Part shown: positions 1-326 of the stretch, piece by piece | Numbering within the stretch: the first letter of the stretch is position 1 | How the letters are laid out: every line of letters starts with the position of its first letter | Program-made: the position numbers and the translations under genes | DNA from: Escherichia coli | Lineage (GTDB): Bacteria > Pseudomonadota > Gammaproteobacteria > Enterobacterales > Enterobacteriaceae | Reading direction: 5' to 3' (one strand) | DNA: 326 bases | Assembly (NCBI RefSeq): GCF_003334255.1 | Contig: NZ_QOWU01000262.1 | Notes under the pieces: model-generated | Database searches by the model: none | Told to the model about the DNA's origin: nothing | The model's input: only the letters and a program-made list of their open reading frames with translations

Positions 1-326
1 TACCTCTCCCGTTTACTCAGTTGTTCAGGCAGATGGTGAAGCAGCTCACCGTTGCCGCAGTAAATGGCGGCATGGTTCGGTACCGAAGCACCAAAGCAGC
101 ACAGCAGAATATCGCCCGCCTGTGCAGAGGACAGGGGCACCCGGTAAAAGCCGGTGACCGCCATATTGTCCAGGTAAAGGTTCTGACCGTTGCGCCACCA
201 GTCATCCTCGCGATGAAAATCCGGCATTTCAGTCCCCGCCAGATGATAAGCATCCCGGAACAGCGTGTAACAGTCCGTCACCCCGTGCTCAAAGCGCCGT
301 CCTGTCAGATGTGGCACACAGCGGAA
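1..326 (-). CDS. K: Internal fragment (5' and 3' ends both outside the window) of a phage lambda gpK-like tail tip assembly protein, covering the NlpC/P60 peptidase-like domain
   Basis: Seen in sequence: the reverse-complement frame with codons at + 326..324 (F) through + 5..3 (R) has 108 sense codons and no stop; the other minus-strand frame in the track stops at 17..19, and the + strand frames I translated stop at 37..39 and 155..157. Translation contains ...EHGVTDCYTLFRDAYH... and ...SVPNHAAIYCGNGELLHH..., matching the Cys and His-His arrangement of NlpC/P60 papain-like peptidases. Established knowledge (recalled, not searched): this closely resembles the C-terminal half of lambda gpK, which has an N-terminal JAB/MPN domain and a C-terminal NlpC/P60 domain. 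The trailing 2 nt (+ 2..1, 'ta' on the coding strand) begin the next codon, so the gene continues below position 1; its start lies above position 326. Confidence 0.87.

Follow-up and report, generated by a model that had tools for sequence, protein, structure and literature searches.

The 326-nt stretch of Escherichia coli DNA analysed here (the window) raises the question of which gene it belongs to and how much of its surroundings can be predicted from it. The first-pass annotation had claimed that the window implied the tail module of a lambdoid phage or prophage, and this reading was borne out by its homology to gene K and by the order of tail genes in the loci that match it. We are highly confident that the window belongs to gene K of the M-L-K-I-J tail-tip module of a lambdoid siphovirus. 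This siphovirus is most probably a prophage integrated in E. coli and belongs to a mosaic family, among whose members are the 'PPompW' prophages found at ompW in Shiga-toxin-producing strains; K would act as a peptidase at the time of assembly. Within this explanation, we regard gene identity, gene order and the conservation of catalytic residues as established. K is an ordinary gene of a textbook module, and the majority of sequenced E. coli genomes contain it. The locus serves as a calibration, in that the gene order near K is highly predictable and the wider phage background is not.

The window is an internal part of a predicted gpK-type gene

Minus-strand frame 0 was open from end to end of the window (326 bases, 108 codons), for which the chance expectation is ~0.006 per frame. 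Its 108-residue translation matched the PHROG_30 family ('minor tail protein') at 5.7e-70 and, over fragment residues 9-102, the Pfam family NLPC_P60 (PF00877) at 1.8e-10. An exact copy of the window was found at 12001-12326 of one matching locus (L001), within a coding sequence at 11695-12438. In the exact-match loci, the window corresponds to nt 307-632 (residues 103-210) of a 744-nt gene of 247 residues that is annotated as 'tail tip assembly protein K' or 'C40 family peptidase', and in the same loci lambda K was matched by tblastn with 87% amino-acid identity and a coverage of 0.99. By homology, the window is an internal stretch of a lambda gpK-type tail-tip assembly gene on the minus strand. 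The predicted gene fragment (1..326, minus strand) comprises codons 103-210 and the first two bases of codon 211 and holds most of the NlpC/P60 (C40) domain; both the start and the stop of K lie outside the window.

The pattern of substitution agreed with this assignment. Among seven distinct homologous sequences, variable columns fell 13, 8 and 53 times at codon positions 1, 2 and 3, respectively, of minus-strand frame 0, a skew that identifies this frame as the coding frame under purifying selection, and the closest diverged copy of the window carried seven changes, every one of them synonymous. A search of Rfam with the window gave zero matches down to E = 1, repeats within the window were limited to short two-copy matches of which none was meaningful, and one promoter-like site was present, which was weak (a score of 9/12). 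With the 108-aa window fragment as the only query, TIGR02219 (phage_NlpC_fam, putative phage cell wall peptidase) scored 20.4 bits as compared with a curated cut-off of 81.9, and on this fragment score the window was left without assignment to that equivalog.

Lambda gene K (UNA07264.1, OM418627.1) resembles the gene of the window in its position between L and I, in a 103-nt overlap with I and in its DNA, which is 85% identical over the window. The two differ in annotated length, since lambda K is annotated with 199 aa from an internal ATG, whereas the gene of the window and its RefSeq annotation have 247 aa, a form that restores the complete JAB domain. The shorter form is also annotated in lambda h434 imm21 (L006, 6839-7438), where the internal ATG lies 150 nt after the end of L; the 247-aa form (L001, 11695-12438) starts 11 nt after the last base of L, and its JAB domain includes a conserved E19.

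Gene order around K

To describe the neighbourhood of K, we fetched 22 loci and scored the first 18 of them by tblastn with the lambda M, L, K, I and J proteins; the window sequence is exact in ten of these 18 (L001-L003, L007, L008 and L014-L018). The five genes were found in the order M, L, K, I, J on one strand in 17 of the 18 loci, including all ten exact-match loci, and annotation gives the same order in enteropathogenic E. coli (EPEC) E2348/69 (L019) and in Salmonella phage ES18 (L020), so that the order was present in 19 of 20 loci overall. The specific expectations of the first-pass annotation, namely an L-like gene directly upstream of K and the genes I and then J downstream, all on the same strand, were each confirmed at 10/10 exact-match loci and at 19/20 loci overall. 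The gap between the end of L and the start of K is 10 nt. The sole exception among the 20 is a decayed remnant in E. coli AF44 (L004), which matches only 102 nt, or 31%, of the window. At the scale of whole genomes, a query of 3756 nt that begins in M and extends into J was at least 80% covered in 3196 genomes, and every sampled row with substantial M-J coverage had J, a C40 peptidase, L and a tail assembly protein beneath the match.

Phage ES18 extends the comparison beyond E. coli. Its gp27, annotated as a C40 family peptidase with similarity to lambda gpK, stands in the same M-L-K-I-J order, but its DNA is 69% identical over just 44% of the window, and ES18 carries annotated 'possible moron' genes between H, M and L.

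A few records depart from the usual form of K itself. K appears joined either to L (PF05100) or to I (PF06805) in the singleton protein clusters P0022, P0026, P0028, P0037, P0043, P0105 and P0115, which are probably frameshifted or mis-called genes; K-I fusions have been mentioned previously by Iyer et al. 2006 (PMC1779556). In phage vB_EcoS-683R6 (L005, 8690-9290), whose coat gene is P22-like and whose tail tip is lambda-like, K is unannotated, the window matches in two pieces and a minus-strand 'hypothetical protein' has been called instead; a frameshift or a sequencing error probably accounts for this.

Identical copies of the window lie in different phage backgrounds

Of 5426 complete E. 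coli genomes, 4278 had a match of some kind to the window, at up to 14 places per genome (median 2). Identical copies were joined to M proteins of two types, with 45% or 80% identity to lambda M, to J proteins with 59-79% identity to lambda J, and to at least two head and tail-shaft backgrounds, HK97-like or lambda-like. Only 16 records had at least 99% identity over the M-to-J span, as compared with 877 E. coli genome records for the window. The same mosaicism is apparent when individual elements are compared: the PPompW prophages (e.g., LC567822.1) and the induced phage PhiR5_1 (PV340545.1) share 100% identity over the window and the L-K-I-J arrangement, yet they differ in their head and tail-shaft genes (HK97-like versus lambda-like) and in the cargo that follows J (type III secretion effectors versus Lom, fibre and adhesin genes). 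Because of these differences, the window does not pinpoint one phage, and because exact copies occur in different backgrounds, the wider genome cannot be inferred from it. We conclude that the immediate neighbours of K are predictable and that the rest of the phage is not.

Prophage, free phage or other origin

The first-pass annotation had proposed that an integrase and att sites be looked for as a means of deciding between an integrated prophage and a free phage genome. Both were present in the exact-match element PPompW_132418, which contains intE and xisE together with a repressor pair of the dicA/dicC type and is bounded at both ends by 121-bp duplications (att). In the chromosome of strain CFSAN061761, an ompW remnant beside the trp operon marks the end of the element. 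For the window itself the choice is undecidable from sequence, as both states share one sequence, and it is base rates that favour an integrated E. coli prophage.

An alternative that we consider improbable is that the window derives from the genome of a free phage, whether packaged in a virion or induced. Thirteen phage or prophage records have 100% DNA identity to the window, and these include the induced or isolated phages PhiR5_1, vB_EcoS-569R3, vB_EcoS-705R7 and vB_EcoS-783R2; in addition, related K genes at about 86-91% identity occur in circular 'plasmid' records of 46-48 kb, which is the size of a phage. However, the other nine of the 13 are 'PPompW' sequences of Shiga-toxin-producing E. 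coli, that is, prophages cut from genomes, and the 13 phage records stand against the 877 E. coli genome records with at least 99% identity to the window.

Another explanation, which we judge to be very improbable, is that the window belongs to the remnant of a decayed prophage that has lost the predicted neighbours. The AF44 locus demonstrates that such decay occurs: at L004 8695-9171, K is truncated after 136 codons, at the equivalent of window base 102 on the sense strand, and is joined to a 23-codon fragment of a tail fibre assembly gene beside sitABCD, with both I and J lost. Furthermore, several prophages with the exact window have frameshifted portal or J genes. Nevertheless, the AF44 remnant matches only the 31% of the window noted above, at 91% identity, and M, L, K, I and J are all retained in 10/10 exact-match loci. 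In AF44, an IS3 element was also observed upstream among terminase remnants. The frameshifted portal or J genes lie at L001 3206-4430, L003 9674-12420, L018 6859-10331 and L010 7752-11230; three of these prophages have the exact window sequence and one is 95% identical to it. Some of these widespread K-bearing elements are probably defective.

We assign a negligible probability to the possibility that the NlpC/P60 domain belongs to a non-phage locus, for example to a cell-wall hydrolase of bacteria, to a tailocin or to a gene on a plasmid; a non-phage locus was the refuting scenario named in the first-pass annotation. NlpC/P60 domains are widespread in bacteria, and 60 plasmid-labelled records match the window, but phage tail genes surround K in both of the plasmid hits examined, and most of the other plasmid-labelled matches are phage-sized circles or chromosome-sized records. 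In all listed rows, the annotated feature beneath the match is a tail protein or C40 peptidase gene within a tail module, and the exact-match loci that were fetched with enough flank contain head genes as well, so that for exact matches a non-phage origin is effectively refuted; no such case was seen among the loci and rows examined.

An open antisense frame commonly arises from codon usage in GC-rich genes, and the notion that plus-strand frame 2, which is free of stop codons across the whole window, encodes a gene was rejected as scarcely credible, since homologues of 85-90% identity have 1-3 stops in this frame and substitutions track the codon phase of the minus-strand frame rather than its own.

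Predicted catalytic residues and the role of K

The full K protein of L001 contains two peptidase-like domains, Prok-JAB at residues 3-105 (7e-15) and NLPC_P60 at residues 111-224 (1e-12). The window holds only the second of these, the JAB/JAMM metalloprotease domain being outside it. A first homologue search returned only close relatives (at least 67% identity), which were uninformative for conservation, and conservation was scored instead in an alignment of 87 sequences, K and 86 relatives from a representative library, with a median identity to K of 38%. In this alignment, Cys121, the predicted catalytic nucleophile of the NlpC/P60 domain, was 97% conserved and the preceding Asp120 at least 95% (Asp120-Cys121 codons at window positions 270..275, minus strand), whereas the remaining four cysteines of the window were just 6-13% conserved. 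His187 (codon at 72..74, minus strand), the predicted catalytic histidine, was 99% conserved and aligned with the HVGIY or HMGIY histidine of solved NlpC/P60 hydrolases. His199 and His200 (codons at 33..38, minus strand) were each 98% conserved and aligned with the YH or IH motif of the solved hydrolases, and one of the two, lying 12-13 residues past His187, is the predicted third residue of the triad. The putative Cys121-His187-His199/200 triad would be wholly encoded by the window. Outside it, the JAMM residues H68, H70 and D81 were at least 95% conserved.

Sequence similarity to solved NlpC/P60 structures was weak. A sequence search of the PDB found no solved K structure; the only hits were one to a JAB domain (2kks) and several to NlpC/P60 domains, all of them weak, the best of the latter having an E-value of 0.01, and one pairwise alignment put the catalytic cysteine at a position other than that given by Pfam. 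Bacillus subtilis LytE (PDB 8i2f) and a Tn916-like hydrolase (PDB 9ubf) belong to the same Pfam family, and both histidine motifs align with those of K, which has the conserved Cys-His-His. In contrast to these bacterial endopeptidases, K has a JAB domain fused to it, and in sequence it resembles them only very weakly (E 0.01-0.08).

What K might cleave is suggested by earlier work. gpK is required for assembly of the tail tip and was undetected in virions by mass spectrometry (PMC10721106), and its location has been described as unknown (PMC12617516). Because K is fused to a JAB domain and is undetected in virions, a peptidoglycan substrate is unlikely, and we infer that K would be a peptidase acting on phage proteins during assembly rather than a virion cell-wall hydrolase. 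Iyer et al. 2006 predicted that K processes gpI, whose N-terminal domain is ubiquitin-like (PMC1779556). In gpI this domain is followed by a linker rich in glycine and, at the C terminus, by a plug domain. Cryo-EM has resolved gpI for residues 134/135-223 only (PMC10721106, PMC12617516), which fits processing by K but is not proof of it, as the missing N-terminal part could be disordered. The literature searched contained no experimental report of K peptidase activity, of a K substrate or of gpI cleavage. Both the enzymatic activity and the substrate of K are putative, and the conserved Cys-His-His domain may cleave phage proteins such as gpI or gpH.

Gene I probably starts within K

The 3′ end of the window contains a candidate ribosome-binding site for the next gene. 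A Shine-Dalgarno-like tract, GGGAGAGG(T), lies at window positions 2..10 on the minus strand (GGGAGAGG at 3-10) and is the equivalent of the lambda ribosome-binding site, which the lambda record (L006) annotates at the equivalent bases, 7321-7325. The ATG of gene I is found 10 nt beyond window position 1 and 11 nt past the tract, so that gene I overlaps K by 103 nt (L001 12336-12438) in a different frame. The tract and the ATG were conserved in 16/16 loci compared (9 distinct sequences), and lambda gpI aligned from that ATG in all loci that possess gene I. Within the K/I overlap, the third-position bias of the K frame was gone (5/9/11 variable columns at codon positions 1/2/3).

The RefSeq/PGAP annotation begins gene I at a GTG that lies 99 nt later, which leaves a 4-nt overlap with K and removes 33 residues. 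The Pfam domain Lambda_tail_I corresponds to residues 15-97 of the long form of gpI, and its start is among the residues lost. Taken as a sequence-based prediction, gene I most probably starts at the ATG with the 103-nt overlap, and the shorter RefSeq start looks wrong; K and I would be translated from overlapping frames, with the ribosome-binding site of gene I inside the 3′ end of the window. Automated annotation appears to begin gene I ~33 codons late and to cut into the ubiquitin-like domain. A third start for gene I is used by one plasmid annotation.

Cargo beyond and within the tail-tip module

The first-pass annotation had expected any variable host-range or accessory cargo to lie beyond J. 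Cargo was indeed found there, in the form of Lom, side-fibre (stf) and fibre-assembly (tfa) genes or the type III effectors EspO, NleG and EspM; what did not stand was the restriction to that place, as additional genes were also found between I and J and between M, L and K. The spacer between I and J ranged in length from 60 nt in lambda to 980 nt and was 342-343 nt in most exact-match loci, and its GC content was ~0.42 as compared with 0.55-0.66 in the tail genes. It contains a small unit that is antisense to the tail genes, with a near-consensus promoter (-35 TTCACA, -10 TATAAT) and a strong terminator. In L001 this unit is at 13022-13163 on the minus strand relative to the tail genes, which is the plus strand of the window, ~700-840 nt beyond window position 1.

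A Northern probe and coordinates have been published for the small RNA (sRNA) PasB (PMC8550237, table S6), according to which the 83-nt PasB of EPEC E2348/69 lies in prophage PP6, between its genes I and J. PasB of E2348/69 was identical to L001 13104..13022 at 82/83 nt, and the target of the probe was exact in 7/10 exact-match loci; the predicted promoter puts the start of the transcript ~15 nt upstream of the reported PasB 5′ end. On this match, the predicted I-J unit is PasB, a Northern-validated Hfq-dependent sRNA. Other candidates were considered and set aside. The anti-sRNA AgvB was rejected, as both AgvB and AsxR occupy the moron site at PR′ and have sequences unlike that of the unit, and PasA, PasC and PasD were excluded by their context near Q and the lysis genes. 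No Rfam family was assigned to the unit, the best hits being far below gathering scores, and when the transcript predicted for pasB was folded, it showed no signal of stability apart from the terminator (z = −0.9).

The pasB unit was found at 4400 places in 1800 of the 5426 E. coli genomes, and the sampled RefSeq rows had no RNA annotation beneath it. With this validated sRNA gene located between I and J in most exact-match prophages, and lacking annotation in the RefSeq records examined, the tail-tip module does itself carry cargo.

Variants of the unit with 77-79% identity to pasB were present at L002 12016-12163, L009 7518-7664, L010 7516-7664, and L011 7516-7658 and 8189-8329. These variants retain the -35 and -10 elements, a TTAATCTTC core and the terminator, and differ in their 5′ body. 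The last of these loci, OkiPb01696 (L011), has at least two pasB-like copies in its 980-nt spacer, and in the genome-wide search, the best match to the pasB unit was at 60-80% identity in 779 records. The pasB-like variants may constitute a wider sRNA family than the few-nucleotide variants of PasB that have been described. We tentatively suggest, as a proposal somewhat less probable than not, that the I-J spacer is a general slot for small-RNA cassettes, in which case PasB would belong to a wider family whose members share the promoter (-35 TTCACA and a TATAAT-like -10), the TTAATCTTC core and the terminator but swap the 5′ body. If so, the variants with 77-79% identity and the multi-copy loci would be expressed sRNAs with different targets.

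Insertions elsewhere in the module were found in OkiPb01696, a relative with 90.5% identity, which has a porin gene, ompC, between M and L (2462-3625) and two Arc-family genes with an antirepressor gene between L and K (4551-6146). The arc/antirepressor insert resembles immI of phage P22. A hok/gef gene follows J in the same locus.
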